This document shows, one piece after another, positions 21,649 through 61,837 of a DNA stretch of 64,000 bases (positions within the stretch are counted from its first letter, which is position 1; each line of letters opens with the position of its first letter). Under the pieces are notes generated by a model. The model did not search any database. It had not been told where the DNA came from and saw only the letters and a list, made by a program, of their open reading frames with translations. Source of the DNA: an uncultured Pseudomonadales bacterium (GTDB lineage: Bacteria > Patescibacteriota > Microgenomatia > UBA1400 > UBA12028); assembly GCA_964635905.1 (NCBI GenBank), contig CAZWPK010000002.1, positions 77,621-141,620 on the forward strand. The letters run 5' to 3'. The translations under genes and the position numbers were made by a program.

Positions 21649-23828
<2,180 letters not shown>

Positions 23829-24605: not shown

Positions 24606-24933
24606 CGATAGCTTTCTTTCGAACCAGCTGCTCTAGCTTCTTATCCATTCGCTTTTGCTCAATTCGATTTAGAAAAGTGAGAAATACTACGATCATTAAG
24701 GCAATAATCACAAGTAAATCAAAAACTCTGGCAATATTTAATGTTTGGACCACTCCATTAACAGTTTGAGGAAAAATCGCCAAGAAAATAAAGACTCCCC
24801 ACAAACCCATCCAGATTCCGTATTCCATGCTATCGATATGTTGTTTTCGATGATGGATACGAACCGTATACATCATGAAGAGTCCAAACAGTACGGAAAT
24901 AATCTGTAGTAATCTCATAAACCTACTTTCCAT
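24580..24933 (-). CDS. Small membrane protein, DUF2304-like (GT2-associated)
   Basis: About 117 aa with two TM helices and a charged C-terminal tail (EQKRMDKKLEQLVRKK). This layout and the position next to a Dpm1-like GT2 are typical of DUF2304. The start could be 24951, 24933 or 24918. Confidence 0.4.
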   Translation of the reverse strand: MESRFMRLLQIISVLFGLFMMYTVRIHHRKQHIDSMEYGIWMGLWGVFIFLAIFPQTVNGVVQTLNIARVFDLLVIIALMIVVFLTFLNRIEQKRMDKKLEQLVRKKAIDDTKKAAL

Positions 24934-27259: not shown

Positions 27260-27260
27260 G

Positions 27261-46638: not shown

Positions 46639-48141
46639 CTATCTTCGTACTAATGAAAGTAACTCTTTTTGTATCTTCTCAAATCCAAGTAACCCGAGCA
46701 AGCCAACGAAAATACAACCACCGGTAACCACACCTGCCACAAACAGGGGTACAGACTGACTCCACAAGGGGATAAAGCGATACAAAATCACTGCCATACA
46801 CACGGAAGCAACCAGTTGTCTCCAAATTTGTTCAAAAAATTCAAATGGTACTTCCTTCTGTAACGCTTTGACCACAAAAATAACGGTCAATGATATTGCC
46901 ACACTAGCCAAAGCTACTCCATTAAAACCGAAGCGCCAGATAGCAAGTGGGGTGAGCGTCCACTGTAATAGCGTCCAAATCAACATAAACCGTAATGACG
47001 TGTTTATTTTCCCTATCGCATTGAGCGTATTGATCAATGGAGTAGAGATCGACGAAAAAGCGATACTGATACACATTAAACCTAATGTTAATAAGGCTGG
47101 TTGCCATTGCGCATATTTTGGAACTAACGCGGTTAAGGGGATAAACATCACTGAAAACCCTGCTAAAAGTGGGAAAACGGCTAAACTGACAAAAAAGAGT
47201 GTCTTCTCAATCGCACGCTTGAGCAGATGTGAATCGTGCTGCAATCGCGCAAAGGTAGGAAAGGTGATTGCCATAATGCTGTCTACTCCGAAACGATACG
47301 GAAGCCTGGACGCCTGATTTGCCCAGGTAATGTAGCCCAATTCCGGTTTAGAAAGTAAAAAGACGGTGATAACCGAAAATAATTCGTCCTTGATCTTCGC
47401 AATCACGTCATTGGCTTGGAATTTAATTCCGACTTTCATTAAGTCTGAAAACGCAGATTTTGAGAAGGCGAACCCTACCGGCCAGCGTTTAATGGAAAGC
47501 ATGATGACCACACCAATGATGGCTCTAGCCAACACCGCAATCGAGTAACTGGTAATGCCCATTCCTCTCCAAGCGAAAAATAAGACAATTCCATTAAAGA
47601 CCATGGCTTCAACCACAGCTGGCATGGCCAGTTTTCCAAATTCCAATTGTCGTTCTAGTAAGATCGATGAATTCGTTTTCAGGGAAACAATGGGAAACGA
47701 CAGTGCAAACGCCGCGGCAAGAAAGACTGCTGGCATCTCTAGCTTTCCATTGAGATGTAATGTCCATGCAGTTGTAATGATCAGGACACAGACAATCCAG
47801 GCAAGAATTTGCTGAACGGTAAAGACTGTGCGTAAATCGCGAACTGTTGGGGCTTCTTTTTTTTGAATCAGTGAGGCTGCTAAGCCAATGTCCGAAATAA
47901 TGGTAAAGAAGCTACTGATGGAAACGACAATTCCATAGATTCCAAAATCAGTAGTAGATAATAATGCGGACAATAAAAAATAGGAAAGTACCCCTATTCC
48001 TTGGAGAAAGAGTGAGCGAATCACATAGGAAATCGCCCCACGCATGGACCTCTTTTTAATATCTTCAACTTGTAGAACATCTTCTGCAATGGACAATGCG
48101 GGATTTAAATCTTCTGATGGCTGATCTTTCGCTAATACCAT
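46639..48141 (-). CDS. Wzx-like oligosaccharide flippase (MOP superfamily)
   Basis: About 500 aa with 12 to 14 TM helices in the polysaccharide-biosynthesis-protein layout. The track ORF starts at 48180, but I use the internal Met. Confidence 0.55.
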   Translation of the reverse strand: MVLAKDQPSEDLNPALSIAEDVLQVEDIKKRSMRGAISYVIRSLFLQGIGVLSYFLLSALLSTTDFGIYGIVVSISSFFTIISDIGLAASLIQKKEAPTVRDLRTVFTVQQILAWIVCVLIITTAWTLHLNGKLEMPAVFLAAAFALSFPIVSLKTNSSILLERQLEFGKLAMPAVVEAMVFNGIVLFFAWRGMGITSYSIAVLARAIIGVVIMLSIKRWPVGFAFSKSAFSDLMKVGIKFQANDVIAKIKDELFSVITVFLLSKPELGYITWANQASRLPYRFGVDSIMAITFPTFARLQHDSHLLKRAIEKTLFFVSLAVFPLLAGFSVMFIPLTALVPKYAQWQPALLTLGLMCISIAFSSISTPLINTLNAIGKINTSLRFMLIWTLLQWTLTPLAIWRFGFNGVALASVAISLTVIFVVKALQKEVPFEFFEQIWRQLVASVCMAVILYRFIPLWSQSVPLFVAGVVTGGCIFVGLLGLLGFEKIQKELLSLVRR

Positions 48142-48145
48142 AGGT

Positions 48146-49834
48146 CTATTTTTTATGTCGTCGTAGTTGTAACAGCGCAATCAAGAAAGCAGTCGAGGAA
48201 ACTAGAGAAATAAGTTCCGACAGCCCTCGAAGTGATGTCCGTTCCAGTCGAATTAAGAGCTCATGCTCCCCTTTTGGAATCTCTAACTGGTAGGTACCCG
48301 TTGTCGCATGGCTTCGTAACGGTAATGATACTCCATTTAGATACGCTCTCCATCCAGGAAAAGTAAAAATCTTTACATCCAGACCACATGGAGTACTACA
48401 GTGTACCTGTGTAAGTATGGATGAGGGTTTTTCTTGAATTACATTCAAACTTCCCTCGCCGGTTACGATCGCTAGACGATCCTCTGATGGAGGTGGATAG
48501 TTTGTCCCCACAACTTCTGGGGGAAGATAGTCATTGAGCGTACCGCTTAATGCACTACGAATGAATTCCGAGTCCGTTCGATAGTACGAAGACAGATCAT
48601 CCAGATAACGCTCGGGAACAAACAGTTTCGCCTGAAACAGGGCGCACAGAATCAGCACACTTACCAGTAGGAAACGTGCCGATTTCTCGCGAAAAAGAAA
48701 AATCGCCCCACCAGCCAGTAACGCCAGGAAAACATGCGAAAATGCTAACAATCTCCAGGGAAACTGGAGAAAACGCAGCGTCGGCACGTGTTCCCATACC
48801 CAAACACTCTTTGAGGTGGTTAACCAAGTAAACGCAGCAAAGAAAAGTACGATTACGACTACGAACAGTTTTGAATACTTGTTTCCTTTACGTGCGATAA
48901 CCATCACCGACAAGGCAGCAATACCCAAGGCTAACATCCCAAGTGAGAAACTAATCCCGTCCTCGATGCCTGGTATCGATCCACCATATCCCCACGTACC
49001 AGTAAAGAGCTGACGAATAGCCACGAAGTGATTGTGAAAATCGAAATCACCCGTCGTGATTGTTTGTTCGACACGGGTGTACCCTTTTTCAAAATAGGCA
49101 GGGATCACATAAAAGGCACAGAGTCCGATTCCCAGCAACACGGAGACGGCTACCCGTTGAAAAAAGATTCTCTTTTCTTGGATCGTTTTTTGAGAAATAA
49201 CTACAAGTGCCGCAGCAAAAAGAACAAGCAATGGTAGCAGGATCATTCCAAGCAAATTATGTGAAGTTAGGGTGATGGCAATGCAAAAAGCCAACCATAT
49301 AATCCCACCTTTTTTTTGCTTTTCAAGATAGACAACTCCAGCCAGAGCAAATGGTATTGTAACCATCGCAAACACTTCTCCAATGGCACCGCGGACATAG
49401 AGGTCAACCGCTCGATAGGTTGCAAAAGAGAAAAGAATGGCACTAAGAATTCCGCCCTGTTTTCCCCAAAATTCTTTGGATAAAAGATACATTCCGACAA
49501 AAGCGAGGATGGCATTGATGATATACAAAAGTTTAATCGAAATAATCGCTCCAAATAACCAGTTTGGAAGTTGCGCAAGATAGTATGGAAATGGCGCATA
49601 GAAATTGAACAACGGCATTCCGTATCCAAATCCAAAGTTTTCTGACCATCGAACGGGTATCTCTCCAGAGGCAAGACTCCGTTGCATCTCCACAATTCGC
49701 GCAGCATGGGTATAGTCGTGTGGTCGAAAGAAATCTGTACGAAGAACCGCAAAACTTGTCAGCACGACACAAAGAATTCCGATTCCAACGACGAACCACT
49801 TATCGAGCCACTGCGGTAATGTTGTCTTATGCAT
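48146..49834 (-). CDS. Polytopic membrane protein, unknown (possible polymerase/GT-C-like)
   Basis: About 560 aa with many TM helices and a C-terminal soluble domain. Start at MHKTTLPQWL, 4 nt after the upstream stop. Confidence 0.4.
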   Translation of the reverse strand: MHKTTLPQWLDKWFVVGIGILCVVLTSFAVLRTDFFRPHDYTHAARIVEMQRSLASGEIPVRWSENFGFGYGMPLFNFYAPFPYYLAQLPNWLFGAIISIKLLYIINAILAFVGMYLLSKEFWGKQGGILSAILFSFATYRAVDLYVRGAIGEVFAMVTIPFALAGVVYLEKQKKGGIIWLAFCIAITLTSHNLLGMILLPLLVLFAAALVVISQKTIQEKRIFFQRVAVSVLLGIGLCAFYVIPAYFEKGYTRVEQTITTGDFDFHNHFVAIRQLFTGTWGYGGSIPGIEDGISFSLGMLALGIAALSVMVIARKGNKYSKLFVVVIVLFFAAFTWLTTSKSVWVWEHVPTLRFLQFPWRLLAFSHVFLALLAGGAIFLFREKSARFLLVSVLILCALFQAKLFVPERYLDDLSSYYRTDSEFIRSALSGTLNDYLPPEVVGTNYPPPSEDRLAIVTGEGSLNVIQEKPSSILTQVHCSTPCGLDVKIFTFPGWRAYLNGVSLPLRSHATTGTYQLEIPKGEHELLIRLERTSLRGLSELISLVSSTAFLIALLQLRRHKK

Positions 49835-49838
49835 ACAA

Positions 49839-51419
49839 TTAATGAACCTGATAGAACAGTAGACTTGGTCCTGGAGATGGGCGTTTGAATTCAAAGATTA
49901 ATTGAAGGTTATCTTGATTCACCAGTCCAAGACGATGACTATTTACGGCATAGTAGATTTCATCTTGATTCGCCCTAGAGAGAAATTCCTGAGGTAAGGC
50001 AGAAACGGAAACTCCAATCCCCTCAATTTCAATTCCTGGGAGTGCGTTGTCACCTTGAAAGTACATCGTTAAACCATCTGGAAGCGTTCCAAAAGATCCT
50101 TCAGTCAACACGACTATCTTTTTTGAAGAATTTGTAGGGAGTAACGCGTGTCGTTCTTTAATAAATGTAGCAATTTCCAAGTTTCCATAGCCTGCTGACC
50201 ATTCGGTTAAATACTGCGTTCTATCAGCAGCAACAAACGGAATCTGTGCCGGATCCAACAAGGCAGGAAAAATAAATACAGCGCTGCTAAGAAGCGTTAG
50301 AGCAATCATCGCAATTCCAAATAGACGCATACGGGTATGCGCAAGAATGGTTTCAAACGAGAGCACGGACGCAAGAGTATAAAACAGTGCAACTGGAAGG
50401 AAATAGCGTGGCCATAAGACGCGACCGAATCCAATCAGCGGAATCGCAAATAACATTGCTTGAATAATGAGTATTCCGATGGTTTTACGTTTACGTGAAT
50501 AGAATAGCCCGAGCAAAGGAATCAACAGTACAGGAAGGGTTAGATACGATGCCAACCATCCAACCACCCTGGGAAGACTTTCAAGGATGACGTAACGAAA
50601 TTCTCTCATCAGTAGCTCAGAGAAAGTGAAGGTGAAATCTTGACTACGAGAAAATAACGCACCAAAAAATGAGGATACCCGTAGGAACAGAAACAAACAG
50701 CCGCCCAAAAATCCCCCAAATCCTACATACAGCATACTCACCAAAATCTTTTTTACACTGTGCCGACGTTGTTCGTTATCCTCCTCAACTGCCCAAGCCA
50801 AAAGTGGAGATAAGGCCAAACTTGGAATAGCAAACAATGCCGGTGTTTTTGTGTAGAGCGCAGCTCCATAAAAAAGAGCAAGCAAGAGAATATGTGGAAT
50901 CACTTTATAGGGAGTTTTTTTTGCTCGAAGTGTAATCACCGAGATTTGAATGGTTGTTAGAAATGACAGCGCAAGACAGAGCACGAGTAGACCATCCATC
51001 AATGCCACCCGATGATAGAAGAACCAAAAAGGAAGAACGGATATGAATACGACCGTTAATATTGCAGTAGTTGATCGCTTGCTTAGTAGGCGTGTTAACT
51101 TCGCCATTACAGTCACAGTTGCCAATCCAATCAGTAACGCCAGGAATCTTCCTGCAAAGAGCGGATCAGGAATCATGCGAAGCATCATTGACAGTAGCCA
51201 CATGAAGAGTGGCGGTTTCCCATCTGCCATCGAGAAAAAGGCAAAACGCTGTGCATCATCAAGTATCAATTGCGCCCAATGAATATAAATTGCCTCATCG
51301 GCAAAAACTGGAAGAAGTAACAATGCCGGAAGGTGCAGCCCCAAAAATCCAGCAAGTGTCCATGCCCAAAATGGAAACAGTCGGTACACCAAGCGAGTCA
51401 AGTGGATTAATCGTTGCAT
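49839..51419 (-). CDS. ArnT/PMT-like GT-C glycosyltransferase
   Basis: The first loop VFADEAIYIHWAQLILDD carries a DE..Y motif. I use the internal Met MQRLIHL, because the track start at 51638 would overlap the upstream gene by 232 bp. Confidence 0.5.
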   Translation of the reverse strand: MQRLIHLTRLVYRLFPFWAWTLAGFLGLHLPALLLLPVFADEAIYIHWAQLILDDAQRFAFFSMADGKPPLFMWLLSMMLRMIPDPLFAGRFLALLIGLATVTVMAKLTRLLSKRSTTAILTVVFISVLPFWFFYHRVALMDGLLVLCLALSFLTTIQISVITLRAKKTPYKVIPHILLLALFYGAALYTKTPALFAIPSLALSPLLAWAVEEDNEQRRHSVKKILVSMLYVGFGGFLGGCLFLFLRVSSFFGALFSRSQDFTFTFSELLMREFRYVILESLPRVVGWLASYLTLPVLLIPLLGLFYSRKRKTIGILIIQAMLFAIPLIGFGRVLWPRYFLPVALFYTLASVLSFETILAHTRMRLFGIAMIALTLLSSAVFIFPALLDPAQIPFVAADRTQYLTEWSAGYGNLEIATFIKERHALLPTNSSKKIVVLTEGSFGTLPDGLTMYFQGDNALPGIEIEGIGVSVSALPQEFLSRANQDEIYYAVNSHRLGLVNQDNLQLIFEFKRPSPGPSLLFYQVH

Positions 51420-52660
51420 AATGATGACGCAGTCGTTGTCATTGATTGATTGTAACGTAGTCGTTCTCGGATTTGAATGAAGAGCAGTACCAGCATCCAG
51501 ATGGGAACTGCACTCCAAGTAATGATCTGGCTTTGAGTCAATAACGATGACGAATACTCCCCTACCCATAGGAAAGGAATGTATCGAAGTAGACTGGTCA
51601 ACGAGAGCAAGAGTAACAATACTCGAAATTGGGTACATTTGATAAACGGCAGGAAGCTTAATGCCCAGATTAAATACCAGGGATGAAATTGTTGCGAGCG
51701 GCTAGTCAGTAGCGGAAGAAGTAATAAAAAGGCGGAAGTATCTGCCCAATAGTATTCCAACCTCTGGAAAATGCTAGAGAAACGCGACAATCGATTGTCA
51801 ATCAGACTCTTTCCAGAAAAAAACCCAACCCAAACAGGAATGAGAGTGATCGTGGCGAGCTTAATTTGTGTGGAGAGGCCTAAGAAGAGTAACGATACGA
51901 TGGTGGGAAGAGTGCGATTTCTCTTCATTGTAAAAAGGATTGCAAAACTTACGAAAACGAAAGCCATCATCCACACATCATTATGTCCGCTTGAAAATGT
52001 TTCAATTAAAAAAAGAGGGTTAAGATAGAACCATCGCCACTCCATGCTTTTATGGGCACCGTTCTTTACTTGGCTTAACTTCATTTGAGCAACAGCTAAA
52101 ACGACAACCCCAATTGCCATGAATACTTTAAATGATAGATAGGTTGGTAGAAAACGACTAAAGCCCAGGATGAACGGCGCCGTTGTTAAATACGTCCAAA
52201 ATTTTCCGTAGGGCGCGGTGGTGTGGACATTATGCATAAATCGCAGCCACTCATCAGTCGAGGCTATTTCCAGCGCACTTTTTAGATGGGGATCTTGCTG
52301 GTATTGCAATAGCGCTTTCGCATTAAACATGTAGTTAAACAAATCATGGGAAAGAGCGACGTTGCTTGCTATTACAACGAGCGGCACAATCAACAATGGC
52401 AAAGAAAACTTGATCTGCTTTTTTACTGCAAACAGATACAACCCAAACCCTACTAGGATCAGCAGAACATAGGTAGCCACGACTACACTGCGATTCCCAG
52501 CCAGTTGCCAGGCAGACTGTTGCAACGTTACGAACAATGGCTGCGTTGAAAAATAGAGATTAGGATCCGTCTTCAAAAAAGTCCAAACAAAAAAAACAAT
52601 GCTCCACAACACAATTGCTGGGTAAAACCACAGTGGGATAAAAGCCTCTAATCGTCGCAT
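51407..52660 (-). CDS. Polytopic membrane protein, unknown (GT-C/mannosyltransferase-like architecture)
   Basis: 417 aa with about 10 TM helices. It is immediately downstream of a Dpm1-like synthase. Confidence 0.4.
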   Translation of the reverse strand: MRRLEAFIPLWFYPAIVLWSIVFFVWTFLKTDPNLYFSTQPLFVTLQQSAWQLAGNRSVVVATYVLLILVGFGLYLFAVKKQIKFSLPLLIVPLVVIASNVALSHDLFNYMFNAKALLQYQQDPHLKSALEIASTDEWLRFMHNVHTTAPYGKFWTYLTTAPFILGFSRFLPTYLSFKVFMAIGVVVLAVAQMKLSQVKNGAHKSMEWRWFYLNPLFLIETFSSGHNDVWMMAFVFVSFAILFTMKRNRTLPTIVSLLFLGLSTQIKLATITLIPVWVGFFSGKSLIDNRLSRFSSIFQRLEYYWADTSAFLLLLPLLTSRSQQFHPWYLIWALSFLPFIKCTQFRVLLLLLSLTSLLRYIPFLWVGEYSSSLLTQSQIITWSAVPIWMLVLLFIQIRERLRYNQSMTTTASSLCND

Positions 52661-52661
52661 G

Positions 52662-53408
52662 TTAGTTGTATTGACCTTGTAGATCCGCTATTCGAATTCG
52701 AAGGATATCGATAAACATCCTAACGGAATCTTTGATTGGATCAACTCTATCCGTTTTTGCATAGTTCCAAACGATGGGTACTTCCGCAATCGAAAACTTT
52801 TCTTTATTTGCAATGTAGAGTAGTTCCACATCAAATGCTCCAGTGAAAGCACCGCGCATCTTCCCTTTTGAAGAATACACAACTACTTTTGGAGCAAGTT
52901 TCTCTACAGCCTGAGCTGAAAAAAGCTTGAACCCGCATTGAGTGTCATGGATTCCCGGTATAGCGATGAGCTGGACACAGAGGTTGAACACTTTTCCCAT
53001 CCAGTGACGATGAAACGGTTCTTTTTTTCGTTGCGCCCCAGCAATTTCACGTGATCCAATCACAATTGCATTCCCCTTTTTAGTTTCCGGAAGCAGTTTT
53101 TCAATCTCAGAGATAGGAGTTGCTTGATCAAAATCGGTGAAGAGACGCCAATCCCCGGTCGCTTGTAGCAGGGCGTCGATGACTGTGGGTCCTTTACCAC
53201 GATGTGGAAGTGCAAATACACGCACTTCTTTTTTTGTTTTCGCAAAGTCTTTGAGTGATTGCAGGGTACCATCACTCGATCCGTCATCAGCCAAAATGAT
53301 TTCCCAAGAATAGTTTTTTGCTTTCAAGAAACGATACACTTGGTCAAGTACACCTTTTGAAATGTTGGAGTCCTCATTATAGGAAGGAATAACTACCGAG
53401 AGAAACAT
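52662..53408 (-). CDS. Polyprenyl-phosphate sugar synthase-like GT2 (Dpm1/GtrB family)
   Basis: MFLSVVIPSYNEDSNISKGVLDQV ... ILADDGSSDGT and FTDFDQATP. 248 aa, soluble. Confidence 0.7.
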   Translation of the reverse strand: MFLSVVIPSYNEDSNISKGVLDQVYRFLKAKNYSWEIILADDGSSDGTLQSLKDFAKTKKEVRVFALPHRGKGPTVIDALLQATGDWRLFTDFDQATPISEIEKLLPETKKGNAIVIGSREIAGAQRKKEPFHRHWMGKVFNLCVQLIAIPGIHDTQCGFKLFSAQAVEKLAPKVVVYSSKGKMRGAFTGAFDVELLYIANKEKFSIAEVPIVWNYAKTDRVDPIKDSVRMFIDILRIRIADLQGQYN

Positions 53409-53455
53409 ATTGTCCTATTGTACACAAAAGATTCTATTTATGGCTCTACAAACCG

Positions 53456-54991
53456 TTACTGCGTGGTAATGAAGGTATTCTCCATCATATAAACAGTGAT
53501 CGCTCCGAATTTCTTGGTCTCGAGTAGGTTCCCAAATGTTTGATTAGTCGCCAGCCACTCTTCACGACGTTTTGCGTGACCTGGATCATCCTCGACCACC
53601 ATAAAGATGAGTGGTTCCTGCTCGACATGCGGTCCTGGCATACTCTTGGTTTGCTTACCAATCCAATAAAACACGTACCGATGCGCCTGATCTTGTGCAT
53701 CCGGAGTATAGACCCAAGTTCCATAGCGAGTGGTTCCTGCTTTTGACGCAATCCATCGAGTGGCTTCTACCTGCATCTGGAGTGAAAATCGATCGGCATA
53801 GGGGGTCAAAAACCCCTTCCACCGTTCATAATTTAAGATGGCACTACTGAGTAGTAAGACAACCGTTATCCCCGTTAGAAGAGGTTTGGCGCGTGAATAG
53901 ACACTCATTGCCAACCCAATCAAAGCGCCAATCAAAATGTAGAGTGGGACATGTTGAGCCACGGCGTAGTAATCCCAAAAGTTTCCATAGTTACCGGTGT
54001 AGATTGCATGGAAGAATAGCGGAACCAGGAACCAGAGCAGAATAATTCGAAGGCCTCGATTCTGTTGGAAATGTCGACGTAAGACAATCAGGAGCACGAC
54101 CAGAAGTACTGCAATTGGTAATCCCAGGACCACGCGATCTCCTATCATTCCTCGGCTATAGAGTTCAAAGAGTAATCGCAGTCTAGTTGGCAGAGATTCT
54201 GCCAAGGTAATGCTATGCGTCGTTGAAAATGCAGTGATCAGATTCTTGCTGATCAAAAAATTCCACTTTAATTCAAACAACAGCTGCGGAATGAGGGTCA
54301 GACAAAATCCGATTGCCGTAAATACTCCCCATTGGAGGAGGGTAAGAACTTTTTCTTTGAAGGTACCCAATTTCTTTTCCACAAACACTACTTCATACGC
54401 ATACACAAGAATCACCGTGGGAATATACCAAACAGCATTTGCGGCTTCTAACTGCATACATAATCCAAACAACAAACCAGCCACTACAAAATAGCACATC
54501 TTTTTAGATGCGATGGCTTTCCAGAGCGTTATAAACGAAAGCAAAGATAAAAATGGTAATGGGGATGGATTTGATAACCACCGAGAAAACATGATGTTGG
54601 AAAAAGAAATCGTAAAGAGCACCGAAGAAATCACCCCTGCCTTCCACGACGAAATGCGTTTTGCGACGGAATAGATGATTGCGACACATAAGGTGTGTAA
54701 ACCAATCATGCCTACAGCGGGAACGACTGGGTTTCCTTTTCCTATCCAGTACAGAGGAAGAAGTACGAAATACCAAAAAGGACCTAAAAACACACCAGTC
54801 AGCCCCGTTACTGGACCAATCAAGGTTAGATCTCCTTGCATCAGCTTGACAATTTCCCATGCATCGCGCCCCTGATCAAAAGCAAAAAAAAGATCTCTGT
54901 ACAATGCATAGGAACGCAGATAAAAAGCACTAGCGCACAACCCAACAAGAAATACAATTTCAAAGAAGTGTCGCTGCAAGATTGCTTTCAT
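53456..54991 (-). CDS. Polytopic membrane protein, putative GT-C glycosyltransferase (DQGRD...GP subfamily)
   Basis: First loop FAFDQGRDAWEIVKLMQGDLTLIGPVTG. 511 aa. Confidence 0.45.
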   Translation of the reverse strand: MKAILQRHFFEIVFLVGLCASAFYLRSYALYRDLFFAFDQGRDAWEIVKLMQGDLTLIGPVTGLTGVFLGPFWYFVLLPLYWIGKGNPVVPAVGMIGLHTLCVAIIYSVAKRISSWKAGVISSVLFTISFSNIMFSRWLSNPSPLPFLSLLSFITLWKAIASKKMCYFVVAGLLFGLCMQLEAANAVWYIPTVILVYAYEVVFVEKKLGTFKEKVLTLLQWGVFTAIGFCLTLIPQLLFELKWNFLISKNLITAFSTTHSITLAESLPTRLRLLFELYSRGMIGDRVVLGLPIAVLLVVLLIVLRRHFQQNRGLRIILLWFLVPLFFHAIYTGNYGNFWDYYAVAQHVPLYILIGALIGLAMSVYSRAKPLLTGITVVLLLSSAILNYERWKGFLTPYADRFSLQMQVEATRWIASKAGTTRYGTWVYTPDAQDQAHRYVFYWIGKQTKSMPGPHVEQEPLIFMVVEDDPGHAKRREEWLATNQTFGNLLETKKFGAITVYMMENTFITTQ

Positions 54992-55015
54992 AGACCTTCA
55001 CAGTTTAGTTGTCCT

Positions 55016-56542
55016 TTATCGTACCAATACCACCACGTTCGGTCCATTTGGGATGCTGAATGCATCAATAATGTCTCTATTCGGCCAAATAGCCACTTTA
55101 TACTGCGGCGTGTCTAATGGATTTTGTTTGTGTGCCTCATCGATCACAAACAAACGTTTAAATGAGTGGACCTCCTCTTCACTTGCTGGACGTCCGTGGT
55201 TCGTCGTCAAAAAGTAGCGATAATTCATCCCTAAAAAGTCATTATTCTCTGATAGAAGCAAAATATCATACTTCTCTTTGGCGACTGTGCGTTGTTGAAT
55301 CTCTTCTGCTGTCTGTTTGAATACATCAACATTCATTCCCAATACATGCTTTCCCGGGTAGTTATTCAAACTACAAACTAGAATTGCTCCTAGAGCTACG
55401 ATGACTAATGGACGAAGCAGGATAGATTTCCACAGTGCGCTGATGAAGACAGCGAGCAGAAGGATGGAAATTGGGAATAGGAAACCTAAGTAGTGATTAA
55501 AAATTGATTCCTTATACAGTGACAAGACTCCAATTCCGATCACAAAAAAAGCGAACACAACTTTAACTCCACGTCGAATGTCTGGAGACAGGCTTTTTAA
55601 ACTAAACCAAGTCTTTATCAGTAAATACATCCCTACCAAAAGTGAGACAAGTGCAGCAGAAGTGGGAATTTTAATCCCAAAGATTTCACTTAGGTTTCGA
55701 ACTGCCAACGCAATCCAGGAGTAAAAGATGGCTGAGAGTTCACTTAAACCTCTAAAGTGACTTGCATCCTCGCTACTTGATCCACCAACAAAAAAAGAAA
55801 GGAATGCGCGAACGTTGAGAAAATCATGTTTAATGTCGTAAATCAAAATCGGGATCACCGAGAACATGACAATAAGGATTGCCAGTCCCGTTGAGCGAAT
55901 AAAAATGGGACTAACTTCTTTATCTTTAATTTGACGATACAGTTCTACCAACCAAAAAATCCCCGCGATTCCAATGACGATCAATGTCAGATAGTGTAAC
56001 TGCGATAAGATTGCGGCACATAATCCAATCAATACCCAATATTGATATTTACCTTGTAACGTTTTATTTACTGCCCATACAACGAGTAATGAAAACAACG
56101 GAACAATATTTGGATTCCAAGAGAACCTGACGTTCTCAATCACGATGGGAGCAATTGCATACAATCCCATTGCCACCATCGCCGTTCGCTTCCCAACTAA
56201 TTCTTTGCCTAGAAGATAAATGAGTGCCAGCGTCAGGACACCAACAAATGCCACTGCATAGGCCGGACCCGACGGATCCGGATAACTAAACATTAAGGGC
56301 AAAACCATGAAGTAATAATAAAATGGACCTAGATACATGTTGCCGACACTGGTAACAGGTCCAATAAAAGCTGGATCTTTATCCATCAGGATTCCACGCG
56401 CAATGAGAGCGTCTCTTCCTTGATCTCCTAAAAACTGCATTGTGGCTCGAAGTCGGTAAAATCGCAAAAAAGTCCCGATCGCCAAGATGACTAAAAAAAG
56501 AATGAATGCTCTTTTTTTCTTATCAAAAAACCTAGTGACCAT
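55016..56542 (-). CDS. Polytopic membrane protein, putative GT-C glycosyltransferase (DQGRD...GP subfamily)
   Basis: First loop QFLGDQGRDALIARGILMDKDPAFIGPVTS. I use the internal Met as the start to limit overlap with the upstream gene. Confidence 0.45.
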   Translation of the reverse strand: MVTRFFDKKKRAFILFLVILAIGTFLRFYRLRATMQFLGDQGRDALIARGILMDKDPAFIGPVTSVGNMYLGPFYYYFMVLPLMFSYPDPSGPAYAVAFVGVLTLALIYLLGKELVGKRTAMVAMGLYAIAPIVIENVRFSWNPNIVPLFSLLVVWAVNKTLQGKYQYWVLIGLCAAILSQLHYLTLIVIGIAGIFWLVELYRQIKDKEVSPIFIRSTGLAILIVMFSVIPILIYDIKHDFLNVRAFLSFFVGGSSSEDASHFRGLSELSAIFYSWIALAVRNLSEIFGIKIPTSAALVSLLVGMYLLIKTWFSLKSLSPDIRRGVKVVFAFFVIGIGVLSLYKESIFNHYLGFLFPISILLLAVFISALWKSILLRPLVIVALGAILVCSLNNYPGKHVLGMNVDVFKQTAEEIQQRTVAKEKYDILLLSENNDFLGMNYRYFLTTNHGRPASEEEVHSFKRLFVIDEAHKQNPLDTPQYKVAIWPNRDIIDAFSIPNGPNVVVLVR

Positions 56543-56565
56543 AGGAATACAGAAAATAACTTTTC

Positions 56566-57783
56566 CTAACTTTTTGCGGAACGCCAAATCACTTTGGAAT
56601 AGATCGTGTAATTTACGACCATCCCAATTGCTGTTGCACAGACCAACCACGCAGTTTTTGAGAGTGATGTCTGTCCGGTAAGTCCTGTACCAGCACTCAC
56701 AACGGTTAACTGAATTGCCACCGCGGCAAACGAGCTGACATTAAATTGAAGAAATTTGAGAAGCGTTGAAACTGCGTCCGTACTCTGTCGATCCTGAAAT
56801 GTCCAAGAGTTATTCAAAATAAAGTTTGAGATAATTGCAAATTCCGCTCCGATAGCTGAAGCCAATCCAGAAGCATTCACAAACCCTAAGAACGGAAGAG
56901 TGGAAATCGATTCTGCCAAGGTCGAGATGGCACTGATTCTGGAAAGGATGAAGAGCAAACTAAAGTTAATGAGAAAGCCCGTTCCACCAACTACCCCAAA
57001 TTTAAATAAACGGGAGACGACAATTTCCTTATACCGTGCCGTTAAAATATATAGCAGCGCATGTTTTATATAATCCGGACCAAGTTTAGACTTTCCCACT
57101 TTTCGATCCACAAACTGAATTGGGACTTCAACGATTTTAAAACCTCGCCGAACGGCTTTATGCAAAAACCCAATTTGGAACGTGTAACCGGTAAACTGTT
57201 GATCTTCCATCTCCGCTTCAATTGCGCTGAATACGGATTTGCGAATTGCTCTAAAGCCAGTAGTCCAGTCACGAATGGCAAAATGCGTAAGCACAATCGT
57301 GTTTACTAAGTTCCCAACAACGCTTAAAAACTTTCGATCGAATCCCCAATCATCCGGAATAGAACCGCCTTTGATATACCGAGATCCTAGAACTAAATCT
57401 GCACCTTGATCGATAGCAGCAATGAATTCAGGAATTTTCTTTGGATCGTGTGAAAAATCAGCGTCAAACTCGAATATGATGTCTGCTGCAAGTGCGTTGA
57501 AAGCATGTCGCATTCCAAGCAGGTAGGCTACTCCTAGACCTTGTTTCTTCTTATTTGAAAGGAGGTGAACGTTTTTATAGGTATGCTCAAAGTCTTTTAC
57601 TGTTTTTCCCGTTTCATCAGGACTGCTATCGTCTACCACCAAAATATGCATGTCCCAGTGCGGTACTACTTTAAAGATCTCCTGCAAGGCGGGAATCATT
57701 TTCGAAATGTTCTCTCGTTCGTTGTATGTTGGAATGATGATGATGGCTCGTTGTTGTGCCATAAATTGAACCGACCCTATCAA
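56566..57783 (-). CDS. Polyprenyl-phosphate sugar synthase GT2 (Dpm1/GtrB-like) fused to C-terminal GtrA-like membrane domain
   Basis: The N-terminus IIIIPTYNERENISKMIPAL ... LVVDDSSPDETG ... FDADFSHDP is a Dpm1/Ppm1 signature. The C-terminal about 130 aa have 4 TM helices (FKFGVVGGTGFLINFSLLFIL...), typical of GtrA. Confidence 0.7.
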   Translation of the reverse strand: MIGSVQFMAQQRAIIIIPTYNERENISKMIPALQEIFKVVPHWDMHILVVDDSSPDETGKTVKDFEHTYKNVHLLSNKKKQGLGVAYLLGMRHAFNALAADIIFEFDADFSHDPKKIPEFIAAIDQGADLVLGSRYIKGGSIPDDWGFDRKFLSVVGNLVNTIVLTHFAIRDWTTGFRAIRKSVFSAIEAEMEDQQFTGYTFQIGFLHKAVRRGFKIVEVPIQFVDRKVGKSKLGPDYIKHALLYILTARYKEIVVSRLFKFGVVGGTGFLINFSLLFILSRISAISTLAESISTLPFLGFVNASGLASAIGAEFAIISNFILNNSWTFQDRQSTDAVSTLLKFLQFNVSSFAAVAIQLTVVSAGTGLTGQTSLSKTAWLVCATAIGMVVNYTIYSKVIWRSAKS

Positions 57784-57841: not shown

Positions 57842-58810
57842 TTATAGCATTTCTGCTTGTAATTCTGCCTCCACCATAATCTTCACGAGTTCCTTAAAGG
57901 AAGTTTTTGGAACCCATCCGAGCTTTTCTTTAGCTTTCGTACTGTCCCCAATAAGTAGTTCCACTTCGGCTGGACGATCATAACGACCATCGTGTTCAAT
58001 GACGGCTTCCCAATTATCAACACCAGCGACGGCACAAGCTTCCTGCACAAATTCTCGTACAGAATGCGTTTCACCCGTTGAAATGACGTAGTCATCTGGT
58101 TGATCTTGTTGCAGCATCAGCCACATTGCTTCTACGTAGTCTTTGGCATATCCCCAGTCACGCTTAGCGTCCAGATTGCCCAGTTTCACTGTTTTCTGTT
58201 TTCCATATTTCACTCTGGCAACTCCATTTGCAATTTTTCGGGTGACAAATTCTAATCCTCTTCGGGGTGATTCGTGATTAAACAAAATTCCAGAGACAGC
58301 ATACAGATTGTAGGATTCGCGATAATTGACCGTGATCCAGTGACCATAGACCTTTGCCACACCATAGGGAGAACGTGGATAGAATGGAGTACTTTCCTTT
58401 TGTGGAACAGCTTGCACTTTACCAAACATTTCCGACGATGATGCTTGATAGAATCGAGCTTGTGGACACGACACATGCAAAGCTTCCAACATCCGTGTCA
58501 CGCCAATTCCAGTAAATTCGCCTGTTAGGACTGGCTGCTCCCAAGATGCATGCACAAAGGATTGGGCGGCAAGGTTGTAAACTTCATCCGGCTGAATTCG
58601 ATCGAGGGCACGAGTCATGGAATGCTGATCCAATAAGTCTCCAGAAATGAGTTCAAAGTTTTCGTTATGGATTGTTTCACCCAATCGAGAGTAATTGAGC
58701 GTACTCGTCCGACGCGTCATTCCATACACTTTATATCCCTTTTCCAATAACAGCTCTGCCAAGTAGGACCCGTCCTGTCCGGTTACCCCGGTAATAAATG
58801 CTTTTTTCAT
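57842..58810 (-). CDS. gmd: GDP-mannose 4,6-dehydratase
   Basis: KKAFITGVTGQDGSYLAELLLEKGYKVYGMTRRTS ... YNLAAQSFV aligns residue-by-residue with Gmd. I start at MKKAFITG, because the track start at 58852 overlaps the upstream gene. Confidence 0.9.
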   Translation of the reverse strand: MKKAFITGVTGQDGSYLAELLLEKGYKVYGMTRRTSTLNYSRLGETIHNENFELISGDLLDQHSMTRALDRIQPDEVYNLAAQSFVHASWEQPVLTGEFTGIGVTRMLEALHVSCPQARFYQASSSEMFGKVQAVPQKESTPFYPRSPYGVAKVYGHWITVNYRESYNLYAVSGILFNHESPRRGLEFVTRKIANGVARVKYGKQKTVKLGNLDAKRDWGYAKDYVEAMWLMLQQDQPDDYVISTGETHSVREFVQEACAVAGVDNWEAVIEHDGRYDRPAEVELLIGDSTKAKEKLGWVPKTSFKELVKIMVEAELQAEML

Positions 58811-58826
58811 AACAAAGAAATCCTTT

Positions 58827-59783
58827 CTACGTACGCGCTCTCCACTCCTCAATGATTTTTTCTAGTTCCTCATTGATGGAAATCTGTAGCTCCCAACCTA
58901 ATGATTGTATCTTTCTATTGTCGGCAATGAGTTTAGGCACGTCAAGGGGACGTAAGCGAGCTTCATCTTGTTCAACAGTAATAGGTACAGTGGACAATCC
59001 GACAAGTTGGTTCACAATCTCCTGCATTTGGATGCCAGTTCCAGACCCGATGTTGTAGACGTCACCCACTGCTCCCTTCTCAAGAAGTACGATATACGCT
59101 CGGACCATATCTTTAACACTCGTAAAATCTCGAATTCCTTGTAGGTTCCCTACTTCCAATGTTTGCTTTTTTCCCTGTTCAATTTCTACAATTTGCTTGA
59201 CAAATGATGGCACTGCAAAATCACCGGTCTGCCGAGTACCGATATGATTGAATGGTCGCGCTCGTACAATATTTAGCTTGTAACTTAAGTAATAGCTATT
59301 GGAGAGTAAGTCTTGGGTCGTCTTGGAAACGGCATAGGGGTTAACCGGATTGAGACTGACGTGTTCGTCAATATAATCCAAATCCAAGTCAACAACACCA
59401 TACTCTTCGGCGGATCCGATGCTTAAAACTCGCGCTTGCGGACAAATTGCCTTCACTCCATCCAAAAGATTTAGTTGTAAGTTAATGTTATTGGTAAATA
59501 ACTCTCGAGCTTTTTCAAAGCTTTTGCCGACATACGCAAACGAGGCTAAATGGAAGATCCAGTCAGGTTTAACGGTCTTAAGCAAAGCTTGCGTTGCTTC
59601 GCCATTGGAAAGATCAACTTGAATATAGTGATCGTCGGCAAGAAATTTGACGTTCTCCGGAGGGGGAGAAAAGGTTGTAGAGTAAATGTTGGTATATCCC
59701 GAAGCAAGTAGTTCTTCAATTAAATGAGATCCAGCAAAGCCAGTTCCCCCGGTAACTAAAATGCGTGGTTGATCACTTGGCAT
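58827..59783 (-). CDS. NAD(P)-dependent nucleotide-sugar epimerase/reductase; possibly GDP-6-deoxy-D-mannose reductase (Rmd-like)
   Basis: Rossmann motif ILVTGGTGFAGSHL, catalytic YAVSK, and an RPFNHIG motif shared with Rmd-type GDP-4-keto-6-deoxymannose reductases. It lies directly upstream of gmd in the same operon. Confidence 0.55.
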   Translation of the reverse strand: MPSDQPRILVTGGTGFAGSHLIEELLASGYTNIYSTTFSPPPENVKFLADDHYIQVDLSNGEATQALLKTVKPDWIFHLASFAYVGKSFEKARELFTNNINLQLNLLDGVKAICPQARVLSIGSAEEYGVVDLDLDYIDEHVSLNPVNPYAVSKTTQDLLSNSYYLSYKLNIVRARPFNHIGTRQTGDFAVPSFVKQIVEIEQGKKQTLEVGNLQGIRDFTSVKDMVRAYIVLLEKGAVGDVYNIGSGTGIQMQEIVNQLVGLSTVPITVEQDEARLRPLDVPKLIADNRKIQSLGWELQISINEELEKIIEEWRART

Positions 59784-59789
59784 AGAGCT

Positions 59790-61109
59790 TTACAATCCAA
59801 TCCCAATATATTGTAACCCAGTCTTCTCAATTGTACTCCGCCCATATTGATTTCGCGTATCAATTACTGTTGCAGCGGATGAAACGAGTCCTGCAAGTGT
59901 AGCGGCAGTCAGTGCACTGTACTCTTTCCACTCGGTTAATAACAAGACGACATCCGCACCCTTGAGTGTTTCCATCATGTCACTGTTTAAGGAAAAGTGT
60001 GCAGACTCTTCAATCCCTACTTTAGAAAACCACGCTTTCGCAGCCAAGAGAGCCATCGGATCGGTGGCTACGACAAAAGCTCCCGCGTGCAAGAGTAAGG
60101 GGATCACCTTGGTACTGGGTGCTTCCCGCATATCATCGGTGTTGGGTTTAAATGAGAGACCTAAGACGGCGACCTTCTTTCCCGAAAATCCCCCCACTGA
60201 TTCTTCAAACTGTCGCAGTAGTTTTACAATGCGTTCTTCATTGAGCTGATTGATGGTCACCATTAAGTTGTCTTCTTGACCAACTGCGCGTGCATAGGCT
60301 GCGAGTTCTTTGACATCTTTTGGAAAACAACTTCCACCATAACCCAGTCCTGGATACCAATAATGACTTCCAATTCGTTTATCCAGTCCAATTCCTTTGA
60401 TCACCTCTTCAATGTTGGCACCATTCGCTTCACACAAGTTTGCAATCTGATTGATAAAGGTGATCCGTGTGGCTAAATAGGCATTGGCTGCGTACTTACA
60501 CATTTGGGCGCTATCCGGATGCATAACTAAGATTTTGCTCGTTAAGGGCTCATGGAGTTCTTTGAGAATCTTTACCACTCCTGGAACTGTAGCCCCAATA
60601 ATCACGCGATCAGGATGCAAGGTATCGGCAACAGCAGATCCTTCTTTGAGAAATTCAGGTAAGGAGACCACATGAAAGACTGTTGTCTTCCCTGCTAAAG
60701 CCTCTTTCATTTTCTGTTCTACTTTGCCACAGGTACCCGGTGGAACAGTGCTTTTGATGGCTACGATTGCGTTATCCTTCAAGTATGGAGCCATACTCTC
60801 GGCTGCAGCAAAGACAAAACGAAGATCTGCCTGACCATCGGGAGCAGAAGGTGTTCCAACGGCAATCATAATCACATCTGCTTTAGAAACCGCGTCGTTA
60901 TAGGAAGTGGTGAACGACAGTTTTTTCTGGCTCATTCCTTTGAGTAGCAACTCTTCCAAATCTGGCTCAAAGAATGGGACCTTTCCGGTTTTTAAACTCT
61001 CAATGCGTTTGGGGTCAATATCTAAACCTATAACCTTGTTTCCTAACTTGGCAAAGACTGCAGCAGAGACGACACCTACAAAGCCCGTACCTATAATGGT
61101 AATATTCAT
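59790..61109 (-). CDS. ugd: UDP-glucose 6-dehydrogenase
   Basis: NITIIGTGFVGVVSAAVFA Rossmann motif and catalytic GGSCFPKD. 439 aa. Confidence 0.9.
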   Translation of the reverse strand: MNITIIGTGFVGVVSAAVFAKLGNKVIGLDIDPKRIESLKTGKVPFFEPDLEELLLKGMSQKKLSFTTSYNDAVSKADVIMIAVGTPSAPDGQADLRFVFAAAESMAPYLKDNAIVAIKSTVPPGTCGKVEQKMKEALAGKTTVFHVVSLPEFLKEGSAVADTLHPDRVIIGATVPGVVKILKELHEPLTSKILVMHPDSAQMCKYAANAYLATRITFINQIANLCEANGANIEEVIKGIGLDKRIGSHYWYPGLGYGGSCFPKDVKELAAYARAVGQEDNLMVTINQLNEERIVKLLRQFEESVGGFSGKKVAVLGLSFKPNTDDMREAPSTKVIPLLLHAGAFVVATDPMALLAAKAWFSKVGIEESAHFSLNSDMMETLKGADVVLLLTEWKEYSALTAATLAGLVSSAATVIDTRNQYGRSTIEKTGLQYIGIGL

Positions 61110-61147: not shown

Positions 61148-61837
61148 ATGCCAGTCCTTAATGGTCTCGAATCTAGCTTCGGTGCGGAAGTAGAAGCAAA
61201 TAATCGAAATGAACGAGCAAAACAGTTGATCACAATTGCTTTGAAAAAACTCAAAGATAGAATTGACGCAAGAATTCCGGATGCCACTCGCCGAGAACTT
61301 GATGATCCTTTGCTTCGACATAATCTATGTCATTTAGTAAATGGTGGATCAGTGATAGAGATGATGAATAATTTCAAAGTCCCAGGTATTGCTTATCGAG
61401 TTGATGTCAATAAAGGAGCTAGTCCATTTCATGAAAAGTCGTGGGCATTTCATGTCGTAGGACTTTTTTGCTTGGACGAGAATGCCGATGATGAGAATGC
61501 CCTCTACGCAGTAATAGATCAATCGACAGTTGATCCAGCTACTGGAGAATATTTCATTGCGACAGGGACACTAGATGAGATTCAAAAAACTACTGAGAAA
61601 ACATTTGGAGGTTTCTGGGAATTTAAGAAACAATTAAAAAACAGCTCAGGAAGAACCTTTAGTGTACAATCAAAAATGAAAGGGTCTGCAGAGTTAATTG
61701 CTCAAGGTAAACCAGTGAATTTTGATGCTGACATGTATACATACCACTATGATACTCAAACGCAAAAACCTCTTGGAATACGTGCAAGTTACATGCTCAA
61801 TACTAAAGTCCCCGTAACCTTTTTTGAAACAATCTAA
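61148..61837 (+). CDS. Hypothetical soluble protein (229 aa), translationally coupled to trmD
   Basis: No recognisable motifs. There are conserved-looking Cys/His positions (NLCHLVNGG, SPFHEKSWAFHVVGLFCLDEN). Its stop TAA overlaps the trmD ATG (TAATG). Confidence 0.4.
   Translation: MPVLNGLESSFGAEVEANNRNERAKQLITIALKKLKDRIDARIPDATRRELDDPLLRHNLCHLVNGGSVIEMMNNFKVPGIAYRVDVNKGASPFHEKSWAFHVVGLFCLDENADDENALYAVIDQSTVDPATGEYFIATGTLDEIQKTTEKTFGGFWEFKKQLKNSSGRTFSVQSKMKGSAELIAQGKPVNFDADMYTYHYDTQTQKPLGIRASYMLNTKVPVTFFETI

Follow-up and report, generated by a model that had tools for sequence, protein, structure and literature searches.

The sequence analysed here is a stretch of 64,000 nucleotides (contig CAZWPK010000002.1 of assembly GCA_964635905.1, positions 77,621 to 141,620), referred to below as the window, from a genome titled uncultured Pseudomonadales bacterium and placed by GTDB in the Patescibacteriota; the names of homologous database proteins assign it to Woesebacteria/Microgenomates. 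The window is one long glycan-biosynthesis island, lying mostly on the minus strand, and its GC content is uniform, at about 42% throughout (range 40–46%). The genes in question encode three family 2 glycosyltransferases (GT2) that may load sugars onto a lipid phosphate, called here synthase 1 (56566..57762; open reading frame (ORF) to 57783), synthase 2 (52662..53408) and synthase 3 (24915..25571; ORF to 25622), together with the polytopic membrane proteins resembling GT-C glycosyltransferases that adjoin them. An earlier note on this DNA had described three repeated modules, each pairing a Dpm1/GtrB-like GT2 with GT-C-like neighbours. All the ORFs that it named are present, on the minus strand and at the coordinates that it gave; two of its three modules, however, are the two halves of one operon conserved across Patescibacteria. 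The probable true starts are at 57762 (ATG), 56542, 51419, 25571 and 24918, that at 51419 being taken from the gene call in a related locus (L009), and the overlaps of 49839..51638 with 51407..52660 and of 55016..56650 with the ORF beginning at 56566 are artefacts of the choice of the longest ORF.

The operon lies entirely on the minus strand. Its first gene, ugd (59790..61109), encodes a UDP-glucose 6-dehydrogenase with the N-terminal, central and C-terminal UDPG_MGDP_dh domains of Pfam, and scores 425.7 bits against the NCBIfam nucleotide-sugar dehydrogenase model (cutoff 189.8). It is followed by a gene of the short-chain dehydrogenase/reductase (SDR) type (58827..59783), for an Rmd-like GDP-6-deoxy-D-lyxo-4-hexulose reductase of the GDP-D-rhamnose branch (best solved relative 2pk3, a GDP-6-deoxy-D-lyxo-4-hexulose reductase, E = 2.5e-60; then 6x3b, a GDP-6-deoxy-D-mannose reductase), and by gmd (57842..58852), for a GDP-mannose 4,6-dehydratase (448.8 bits against the NCBIfam equivalog TIGR01472, cutoff 415). 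Synthase 1, with 398 aa from its ATG, joins a GT2 of the dolichyl-phosphate mannose synthase (DPMS) type to two predicted interface helices and a four-helix GtrA/DPMS transmembrane (TM) domain. Its conserved partner is a PMT_2/ArnT-type GT-C (55016..56542; ORF to 56650), after which come a second PMT_2-type GT-C that is an optional paralog insertion (53456..54991), synthase 2 (a TM-less, Dpm1-like GT2 of 248 aa) and, translationally coupled to it, a polytopic membrane protein of the MptA_B family (51407..52660), which is a putative, mannosyltransferase-like GT-C. The remaining genes are those of a PMT/PMT_2-type GT-C of 526 aa (49839..51419; ORF to 51638; Pfam PMT_2 35.8 bits, PMT 29.5 bits), a YfhO/PTPS_related GT-C-type membrane protein (48146..49834, searched as ORF 48146..49894; Pfam PTPS_related 36.6 bits, YfhO 28.7 bits) and a candidate flippase of the Wzx/MOP family (46639..48180; Pfam Polysacc_synt_3 134.5 bits, Polysacc_synt 77.1 bits). 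A promoter-like site precedes ugd (61147 to 61119), as a match to the consensus only, and the scan for promoters and terminators gave nothing exceeding shuffled expectation.

The evidence that this gene order is more than coincidence comes from other genomes. Species-representative genomes were scanned with an alignment of MptA_B-like sequences, which yielded at least 503 relatives, and synteny was derived from the best 80 loci, most of which bear Patescibacteria titles. In 78 of 79 loci, the MptA_B gene has the ortholog of synthase 2 immediately before it, and in the remaining one the two are 437 nt apart; the stop and start codons of the two genes overlap or abut, with a median ORF gap of -4 nt. 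The DPMS fusion is found upstream in 62 of 66 loci, and in 60 of these 62 the next gene is that of a GT-C. The DPMS gene is immediately preceded by gmd in every case (61/61), and the Rmd-like gene lies at most 2.6 kb upstream of it in all 55 evaluable loci. Both orders, that of a GT-C after DPMS and that of MptA_B after the small GT2, are kept at 33–69% protein identity across the 80 species-level genomes. The commonest arrangement, headed by a ugd homolog, is ugd-rmd-gmd-DPMS-GT-C-GT2-MptA_B-PMT(-YfhO-Wzx), in which a second GT-C may follow the first (the 53456..54991 ortholog occurs in only a subset of the related loci), the PMT gene (49839) downstream of MptA_B is conserved, and Wzx comes after the YfhO gene. 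The operon is located beside trmD on the chromosome, a position that it also occupies in distant Patescibacteria.

Because of this cross-genome synteny, the pairing of synthase and GT-C is taken to be real in modules 1 and 2, while the same cannot be said of module 3. The modular pairing proposed in the earlier note is thus borne out by conserved gene order for the GT2s at 56566 and 52662, and not for that at 24915. The operon was not found described in the searchable literature on Patescibacteria, or the Candidate Phyla Radiation (CPR), in connection with GT-C, DPMS, mannosyltransferase, ArnT or GtrA.

All three synthases match Pfam Glycos_transf_2 (PF00535), with 92.9 bits for 56566..57783, 88.5 for 52662..53408 and 85.4 for 24915..25622. 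Among the approximately 11 GT2s of the window, they are the only ones that group with polyprenyl-phosphate glycosyltransferases (Pyrococcus furiosus DPMS, below PfDPMS, ArnC, GtrB and PpgS). Their top NCBIfam matches are PgfS, ArnC, dolichyl-P-hexose transferase, AglJ and PpgS, PgfS being the top for two of them, while the best models for the remaining GT2s tested are TuaG, an arsenosugar-type enzyme, MftF or a rhamnosyltransferase, or the matches are weak throughout. When the PDB sequences are searched with phmmer, DPMS (5mlz) ranks first for all three (E = 1.2e-39 for 56566, 4.7e-15 for 52662 and 1.6e-11 for 24915), followed by ArnC and GtrB. In contrast, two control GT2s of the same window, at 23829 and 43876, match chondroitin synthase or GmaR/SunS, while DPMS, ArnC and GtrB are all absent from their matches. 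Similarly, a hidden Markov model (HMM) of the DPMS-fusion family scores 81 bits on 24915 and 73 on 52662, versus 22 or less on the non-synthase GT2s of the window. A DxD motif is in register in all three (DAD, DFD, DAD), as are the equivalents of Arg117 and Arg131, which in PfDPMS hold the acceptor phosphate, Ser135 being phosphate-binding also (PMC5526996).

The Dpm1/GtrB-like nature that the earlier note had assigned to the three GT2s is thus borne out by NCBIfam, PDB and HMM matches, by the motifs and by the control GT2s; for none of the three are the closest relatives processive or ordinary soluble GT2s. None of them reaches an NCBIfam equivalog cutoff. The three are only 22–28% identical to one another and represent distinct old families, so that the one logic 'duplicated three times', as that note had put it, does not describe them. 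A recent tandem duplication of the modules was considered and rejected on the same identities.

The C-terminus of synthase 1 matches Pfam PF04138 (GtrA_DPMS_TM) at residues 261–400 over the entire profile (positions 1–117 of 117; 58.8 bits, cutoff 26.1), which confirms the GtrA-like domain that had been suspected there. The phmmer alignment of 56566..57762 with 5mlz covers residues 9–352, the TM domain included. In a Foldseek search with the AlphaFold2 (AF2) model of the fusion (pLDDT, the model's confidence score, 88.8), 5mlz, 9ep0 and 5mm1 lead (5mlz: E = 9.5e-23, about 395 columns, 28% identity), with ArnC and GtrB after them. The model has long helices at 251–273, 297–321, 330–362 and 366–392, and helices at 141–158 and 229–249, the putative interface helices, flank an A-loop of low confidence (222–225). 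By sequence and modelled fold, the closest relative of the fusion is archaeal DPMS rather than GtrB or ArnC. The earlier note had singled out a GtrB-GtrA fusion as noteworthy; the fusion is not new, because the same architecture is present in the solved archaeal DPMS 5mlz and in all of the 120 closest homologs, and it is in fact very common; Pfam calls the domain 'GtrA/DPMS'. A homolog search with the fusion gave 7,989 candidates at E ≤ 1e-10, the best 120 of which all carry both the GT2 and the GtrA domain, and many of the homologs bear the JGI name 'dolichol-phosphate mannosyltransferase'.

The so-called type-III DPMS are defined by the motif 89-DADxQHPP-96 together with Arg117 (SRY), Arg131, Ser135 and Lys178 (KIL), and their TM domain by Asn248 and Asn277 of a polar pocket and a gating Phe338 (PMC12992685). 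In comparison with PfDPMS, the fusion conserves DAD, GSRY (Arg117), Arg131, Ser135, Arg202, Lys208, Asn248 and Asn277. It has DADFSHDP where PfDPMS has DADxQHPP (Gln93 to Ser, Pro95 to Asp), and the position of Lys178 is occupied by Thr (GYTFQ; T194 of 398 aa), so that it falls outside the strict type-III definition. Within the family, D100, A101, D102, H105 and D106 are invariant, S104 and P107 are kept in at least 90% of the members, Thr stands at the Lys178 position in at least 90% of the CPR family, and N313 is invariant, the equivalents of Asn248 and Asn277 both being there; the last TM helix, in which Phe338 lies, does not align with PfDPMS. In PfDPMS, Lys178 touches O6 and O4 of the mannose and a phosphoester oxygen; the changes of Lys178 to Thr and Gln93 to Ser in the CPR family may mean another sugar or another metal geometry. 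It may also be observed that type-III DPMS has been held to be a trait of hyperthermophilic archaea (PMC12992685), and that thousands of mesophilic bacterial proteins, chiefly of Patescibacteria, share the architecture of GT2 plus GtrA-like TM domain and miss only the strict motif definition.

In synthase 2, hhalign aligns residues 4–243 with 7–247 of the DPMS family (99.6%, 227 columns). No TM segment is predicted in this protein, which stops right after the second interface helix, that is, at the point where the TM domain of the fusion starts. PfDPMS that has been truncated to remove its TM domain is still membrane-bound and active (PMC5526996). The database protein identical to the product of the adjoining gene 51407..52660 (P0121), like 117 of 119 other listed homologs, has a precomputed match to PF26314 (MptA_B_family). 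The AF2 model of 51407..52660 is all-helical and polytopic (pLDDT 91.6). In the family of this protein, D32/N34 of the first loop are conserved, and D106, D136, E220 and HND226-228 do not vary. MptB is a GT-C dependent on polyprenyl-phosphate-mannose (PMC13223929).

The neighbours of the synthases that the earlier note had taken as GT-C-like do fall into GT-C families (PMT_2, YfhO and MptA_B), the last of them, 51407..52660, through the precomputed PF26314 match alone. In Pfam, 55016..56650 matches PMT_2 with 33.3 bits (cutoff 26.1), and 53456..54991, with 24.9 bits, comes just short of the same cutoff; the family of the latter is linked to that of the former by hhalign (100%) and by BLASTP (31% identity, E = 5e-16). 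With families built from orthologs and Wzx as a polytopic control, hhalign relates the 55016 family to the YfhO family at 96.6%, to the 49839 family at 92% and to the Wzx control at 0.7%, and the YfhO family (48146) to the PMT_2-type families at 96–97%. Overall, the 55016, 53456, 49839 and YfhO families are inter-linked at 79–100%, and each is below 1% to Wzx.

In the whole window, at least 12 GT-C-like proteins (PMT_2, YfhO and MptA_B types) accompany the three lipid-phosphate-sugar synthases; they are located at 12571..14457, 21649..22899, 25568..29048, 33422..35146, 36499..38346, 39042..40580 and 48146..56542. Profile matches above threshold identify those at 55016, 49839, 48146, 21649, 33422, 36499 and 12571, and the others were assigned by hhalign (53456), family HMMs (25568 and 27261), BLASTP (39042) or the precomputed PF26314 match (51407). 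Those at 33422, 36499 and 39042 form a paralog group of their own (BLASTP E = 1e-16 to 1e-36).

Module 3 is likewise encoded on the minus strand. It comprises a PMT_2-type GT-C paralog (27261..29048), a YfhO-like GT-C paralog (25568..27259), synthase 3 (a PpgS/GacI-like, TM-less GT2 of 218 aa), a small DUF2304 membrane protein of the GacJ/Rv3632 activator or anchor type (24580..24918; ORF to 24951), an ordinary GT2 not of the Dpm1 type (23829..24605; top match TuaG in NCBIfam, chondroitin synthase in the PDB) and an epimerase/reductase resembling GDP-L-fucose synthase (22878..23825; NCBIfam Fcl 279.8 bits, under the cutoff of 500; PDB GDP-L-fucose synthase E = 1.1e-62). A search of the local Pfam copy (E up to 10) leaves both GT-C paralogs without a match. 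The product of 27261..29048, with about 10 predicted TM segments, scores 70 bits with the 55016-family HMM (E = 5e-22; BLASTP to 55016 E = 1e-9), and that of 25568..27259 is 25% identical to 48146..49894 over 556 aa (BLASTP E = 3e-33; YfhO-family HMM 182 bits).

Synthase 3 has no predicted TM segment and matches positions 2–216 of the 226 of the NCBIfam PpgS model (NF058614) with 99 bits; since this is below the equivalog cutoff of 370, it is regarded as a relative of PpgS and not an ortholog. The small membrane protein that had been called DUF2304-like is indeed of this family (PF10066, 63.8 bits), has three predicted TM segments, and its gene overlaps that of synthase 3 in an ATGA, which points to translational coupling. 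The pair of GT2 and DUF2304 is kept in three of three distant relatives (54–62% identity), and so is the second GT2 (23829) after DUF2304; the conserved core of the module is GT2-DUF2304-GT2-(Fcl-like epimerase). GacJ of Streptococcus pyogenes belongs to DUF2304 and Rv3632 of Mycobacterium tuberculosis is a homolog (10.1101/180810); the two bind or stimulate the TM-less synthases GacI and PpgS, respectively (10.1101/180810; PMC3485146). On these likenesses, module 3 is to be classed as a synthase pair of the GacI/GacJ (PpgS/Rv3632) type.

Taken together, homology, motifs, architecture and conserved gene order make it quite probable that the region encodes the extracytoplasmic glycosylation machinery of Woesebacteria-like Patescibacteria, working by the established scheme of synthase, flipping and GT-C. 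From the same evidence we infer the activities, the sugars, the flipping, the pairing of the 12 GT-Cs with their donors, and the acceptors, which may be a cell-wall polymer, a lipoglycan or a surface protein. In such a multi-component scheme (reviewed in PMC8035078), an inverting GT2 of the Dpm1/GtrB/ArnC class, facing the cytoplasm, would load one sugar from a nucleotide sugar onto polyprenyl phosphate, the lipid-phosphate-sugar would cross to the outer leaflet, and a polytopic GT-C would take it as donor, so that an acceptor outside the membrane becomes glycosylated. The GtrA-like four-helix TM domain of synthase 1 may translocate the enzyme's own product, for which the PMT_2/ArnT-type GT-C would be the partner. 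A crystal structure of 2026 has flipped Dol-P-Man within the TM domain of DPMS, and self-flipping has been proposed (PMC12992685); by analogy, this structure is the best available support for the hypothesis that the fused domain is a built-in translocator. The product of synthase 2 is probably used by the MptA/B-family protein 51407..52660, which probably also holds synthase 2 at the membrane. Synthase 3, with its DUF2304 partner, would make a donor of the polyprenyl-phosphate-hexosamine type. For synthases 2 and 3, the flippase is possibly a Wzx protein, as with GacK.

With respect to the sugars, the donor of synthase 1 is most likely GDP-mannose or a GDP-6-deoxyhexose, because its gene is in one operon with Gmd and Rmd; that of synthase 3 is probably of the hexosamine type, by analogy with its relatives. 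A donor derived from UDP-glucuronic acid (UDP-GlcA), Arn-like or Rgt-like, which ugd might suggest, is unsupported, since the SDR beside ugd is Rmd-like and not UXS-, ArnA- or GlcA-epimerase-like. A more specific proposal is that the operon is a Patescibacteria-wide pathway for an envelope glycan or lipoglycan of the mannan or 6-deoxyhexan type, whose DPMS-like enzyme makes and flips its product, possibly polyprenyl-phospho-D-rhamnose. The linkage to Gmd and the Rmd-like gene in all the loci evaluated (61/61 and 55/55) and the change of Lys178 to Thr suggest that product; the proposal as a whole is nevertheless thought unlikely. To our knowledge, no lipid-phospho-D-rhamnose donor has been described so far.

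Several observations weigh against the reading of the region as three-step glycosylation machinery. No dedicated flippase is identifiable in the window for synthases 2 and 3. The Ser135 equivalent is present only in the fusion, being Gly in 52662 and Asn in 24915, and an equivalent of Lys178 is absent or unalignable in all three GT2s. The phmmer match of 52662..53408 to 5mlz ends at residue 166, and only the profile-profile alignment extends through the interface helices. For 51407..52660, the local Pfam copy, from which the PF26314 model is apparently absent, gives no match at any E up to 10; the MptA_B-like alignment, run as a profile against the PDB sequences, finds nothing at E up to 1; Foldseek of the model versus the PDB gives nothing significant (best E = 0.38); and its family reaches at most 26% with the other GT-C families in hhalign, so that the putative GT-C status of the protein derives solely from the precomputed PF26314 match. 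The GT-C neighbours of module 3 are lost in two of three relatives and ambiguous in the third. Finally, 12 of the approximately 54 genes are GT-C-like, so that chance alone would put a GT-C beside each of the three synthases with P ~0.06, and therefore the adjacency within the window alone is not decisive.

Some of these points would be expected if only the DPMS fusion made a lipid-phosphate-sugar, the proteins of 52662 and 24915 being ordinary cytoplasmic GT-A enzymes that extend a polyprenyl-diphosphate-linked oligosaccharide or glycolipid, later flipped by Wzx, and the adjoining polytopic proteins being polymerases, ligases or anchors and not users of the product. Neither small GT2 has a TM segment, both have lost Ser135, the phmmer match of 52662 is limited to the GT-A core, and none of the three GT2s reaches an equivalog cutoff; moreover, the window encodes many GT2 and GT4 enzymes and two Wzx-like flippases, which points to a Wzx-type pathway running in parallel. 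This explanation is nonetheless considered improbable, for the best NCBIfam and PDB relatives of the small GT2s, unlike those of the other GT2s of the window, are exclusively polyprenyl-phosphate glycosyltransferases, the profile alignment passes both interface helices and stops exactly where the TM domain of DPMS starts, and the small GT2 is coupled to MptA_B in nearly all the loci (78/79). Nor is the missing TM domain an obstacle, in view of the active truncated PfDPMS and of the TM-less synthases with a membrane partner that are already established, namely Ppm1/D2 with D1, PpgS with Rv3632 and GacI with GacJ (PMC3485146; 10.1101/180810).

It may also be argued that in so dense a glycan island adjacency is meaningless, and that the synthases feed a common donor pool for GT-Cs anywhere in the genome. 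The chance probability given above, the poorly kept GT-C neighbours of module 3 and the service of 12 GT-Cs by only three synthases would agree with this, but the gene orders of the operon, kept across the 80 genomes despite the divergence of their proteins, and the median ORF gap of -4 nt leave it very unlikely. The earlier note had compared the modules to the gtrABC genes of phages, and a horizontally acquired, phage-derived cassette of the gtrABC serotype-conversion type would indeed share the three-component logic and a TM domain of the GtrA Pfam family. The likeness of logic stands; the phage context and a free-standing gtrA gene are both missing. No phage or integrase domain occurs in any scanned ORF, no tRNA gene was found in the window, the GC content is uniform, there is no stand-alone gtrA ORF, synthase 1 is closest to archaeal DPMS and not to GtrB, and the operon keeps its place beside trmD in distant Patescibacteria. 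An origin as a prophage gtr cassette was therefore rejected, on the absence of phage genes and tRNA and the uniform GC, and such an origin is hardly conceivable.

As machinery for extracytoplasmic glycosylation, the region may be compared with several known systems. Like PfDPMS ('type III'; 5mlz, 5mm0, 5mm1, 9ep0), the fusion has a GT2, what are predicted to be two interface helices and a four-helix GtrA-like TM domain; unlike this enzyme of a hyperthermophilic archaeon, it is bacterial, and its carrier is presumably an unsaturated polyprenyl phosphate and not dolichyl phosphate. As in CsbB/GtcA/YfhO (PMC5836110, PMC7389260, PMC8035078) and PgfS/PgfM1, a GT2 synthase is combined with a GtrA-family element and a GT-C that is YfhO-like or PMT_2-like, the YfhO-like proteins of the window being those at 48146 and 25568. 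In contrast to the Gram-positive CsbB and PgfS systems, the GtrA-like element is fused, there are 12 GT-Cs in 64 kb, and pathways for lipoteichoic or wall teichoic acid are not evident. Module 3 shares with GacI/GacJ of S. pyogenes and PpgS (Rv3631)/Rv3632 of M. tuberculosis a TM-less GT2 with an adjacent DUF2304 protein (for the precedents GacI/GacJ/GacK/GacL and PpgS/Rv3632/Rv3779, see 10.1101/180810 and PMC3485146). In the Gac system, the product is flipped by the Wzx-type GacK and then transferred by a GT-C; unlike in the Gac and PpgS systems, module 3 has no conserved GT-C neighbour, its conserved neighbours being a second GT2 and an Fcl-like epimerase.

The arrangement around synthase 2 resembles the actinobacterial Ppm1/MptA/MptB/PimE/PMT system (for Ppm1 with MptA/B, see PMC13223929), which serves lipomannan/LAM assembly and protein O-mannosylation dependent on polyprenyl-phosphate-mannose, in that a Dpm1-like synthase adjoins a PF26314 protein and PMT-family GT-Cs; like Ppm1/D2, synthase 2 has no TM segment and presumably depends on a partner in the membrane. 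It differs in that the MptA_B-like protein of the CPR is shorter (about 410 aa) and in that genes for phosphatidylinositol mannosides and arabinan, as well as a mycomembrane, are lacking. With the phage and Shigella gtrABC and with ArnC/ArnEF/ArnT, the region has the three-step logic in common; after DPMS, the three GT2s come structurally closest to ArnC and GtrB, and the PMT_2 Pfam family of the window's GT-Cs takes in ArnT. Unlike those systems, the window has neither a separate GtrA or ArnE/F nor a phage context, and the synthases have no gene for an aminotransferase, formyltransferase or deformylase next to them.

Systems of this kind are thus well known, and the finding is correct but ordinary: the mechanism is the established one of synthase, flippase and GT-C. 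The added value is modest and consists in recognising an operon that is strongly conserved in Patescibacteria, for which an unusual lipid-linked 6-deoxyhexose donor is possible in view of the Gmd/Rmd linkage and the change of Lys178 to Thr. It also brings to light the thousands of mesophilic bacterial homologs of the DPMS plus GtrA-like architecture. The envelope chemistry of the Patescibacteria is almost uncharted, though their surfaces mediate an episymbiotic lifestyle. With two lipid-phosphate-sugar synthases and four or five GT-Cs, the operon is a concrete candidate for the chief route to surface glycans in these bacteria, because at least 503 species-representative genomes have MptA_B-like relatives and the order is kept in the 80 examined.

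Several further observations concern the surroundings of the operon and of module 3. Between ugd and trmD lies a gene for a 229-aa protein without a Pfam match (61148..61837, plus strand), the position of which is kept in the relatives L004 and L007. Nearby there is a protein with a Lamin-tail domain (LTD; 62865..63992, minus strand), whose position is also kept, with a VanZ-like gene following it in relatives; this protein may be exposed at the surface or serve as an acceptor. Two GDP-6-deoxyhexose branches flank the synthases, namely Gmd with the Rmd-like reductase (57842..59783) and the Fcl-like enzyme (22878..23825) at the end of module 3.

Elsewhere in the island, 16856..19036 (minus strand) encodes a protein of 726 aa with about nine TM segments predicted in the N-terminal 440 residues and a C-terminal Methyltransf_23 domain (94.5 bits); the membrane part has no Pfam match, and the protein may be an extracytoplasmic glycan-modifying enzyme. 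The second Wzx-like gene is at 335..1717. An AsnB-type glutamine amidotransferase (8062..9933, plus strand; 282.8 bits), an RfbH/DegT-type aminotransferase (1726..2904, plus strand) and a hexapeptide acyltransferase (16324..16875, plus strand) belong to the same island, and from these genes one would expect the sugars of the parallel Wzx-type pathway to be amidated or aminated, and acylated.

With regard to the title of the genome itself, dozens of records of metagenome-assembled genomes titled 'uncultured Pseudomonadales bacterium' (L011, L013, L014, L018, L020 and others) have this Patescibacteria-type operon, as does one record each titled Limisphaerales and TM6. The identity of their MptA_B-like proteins to that of the window is 33–49%, and the taxonomy of these records looks wrong or like a placeholder.

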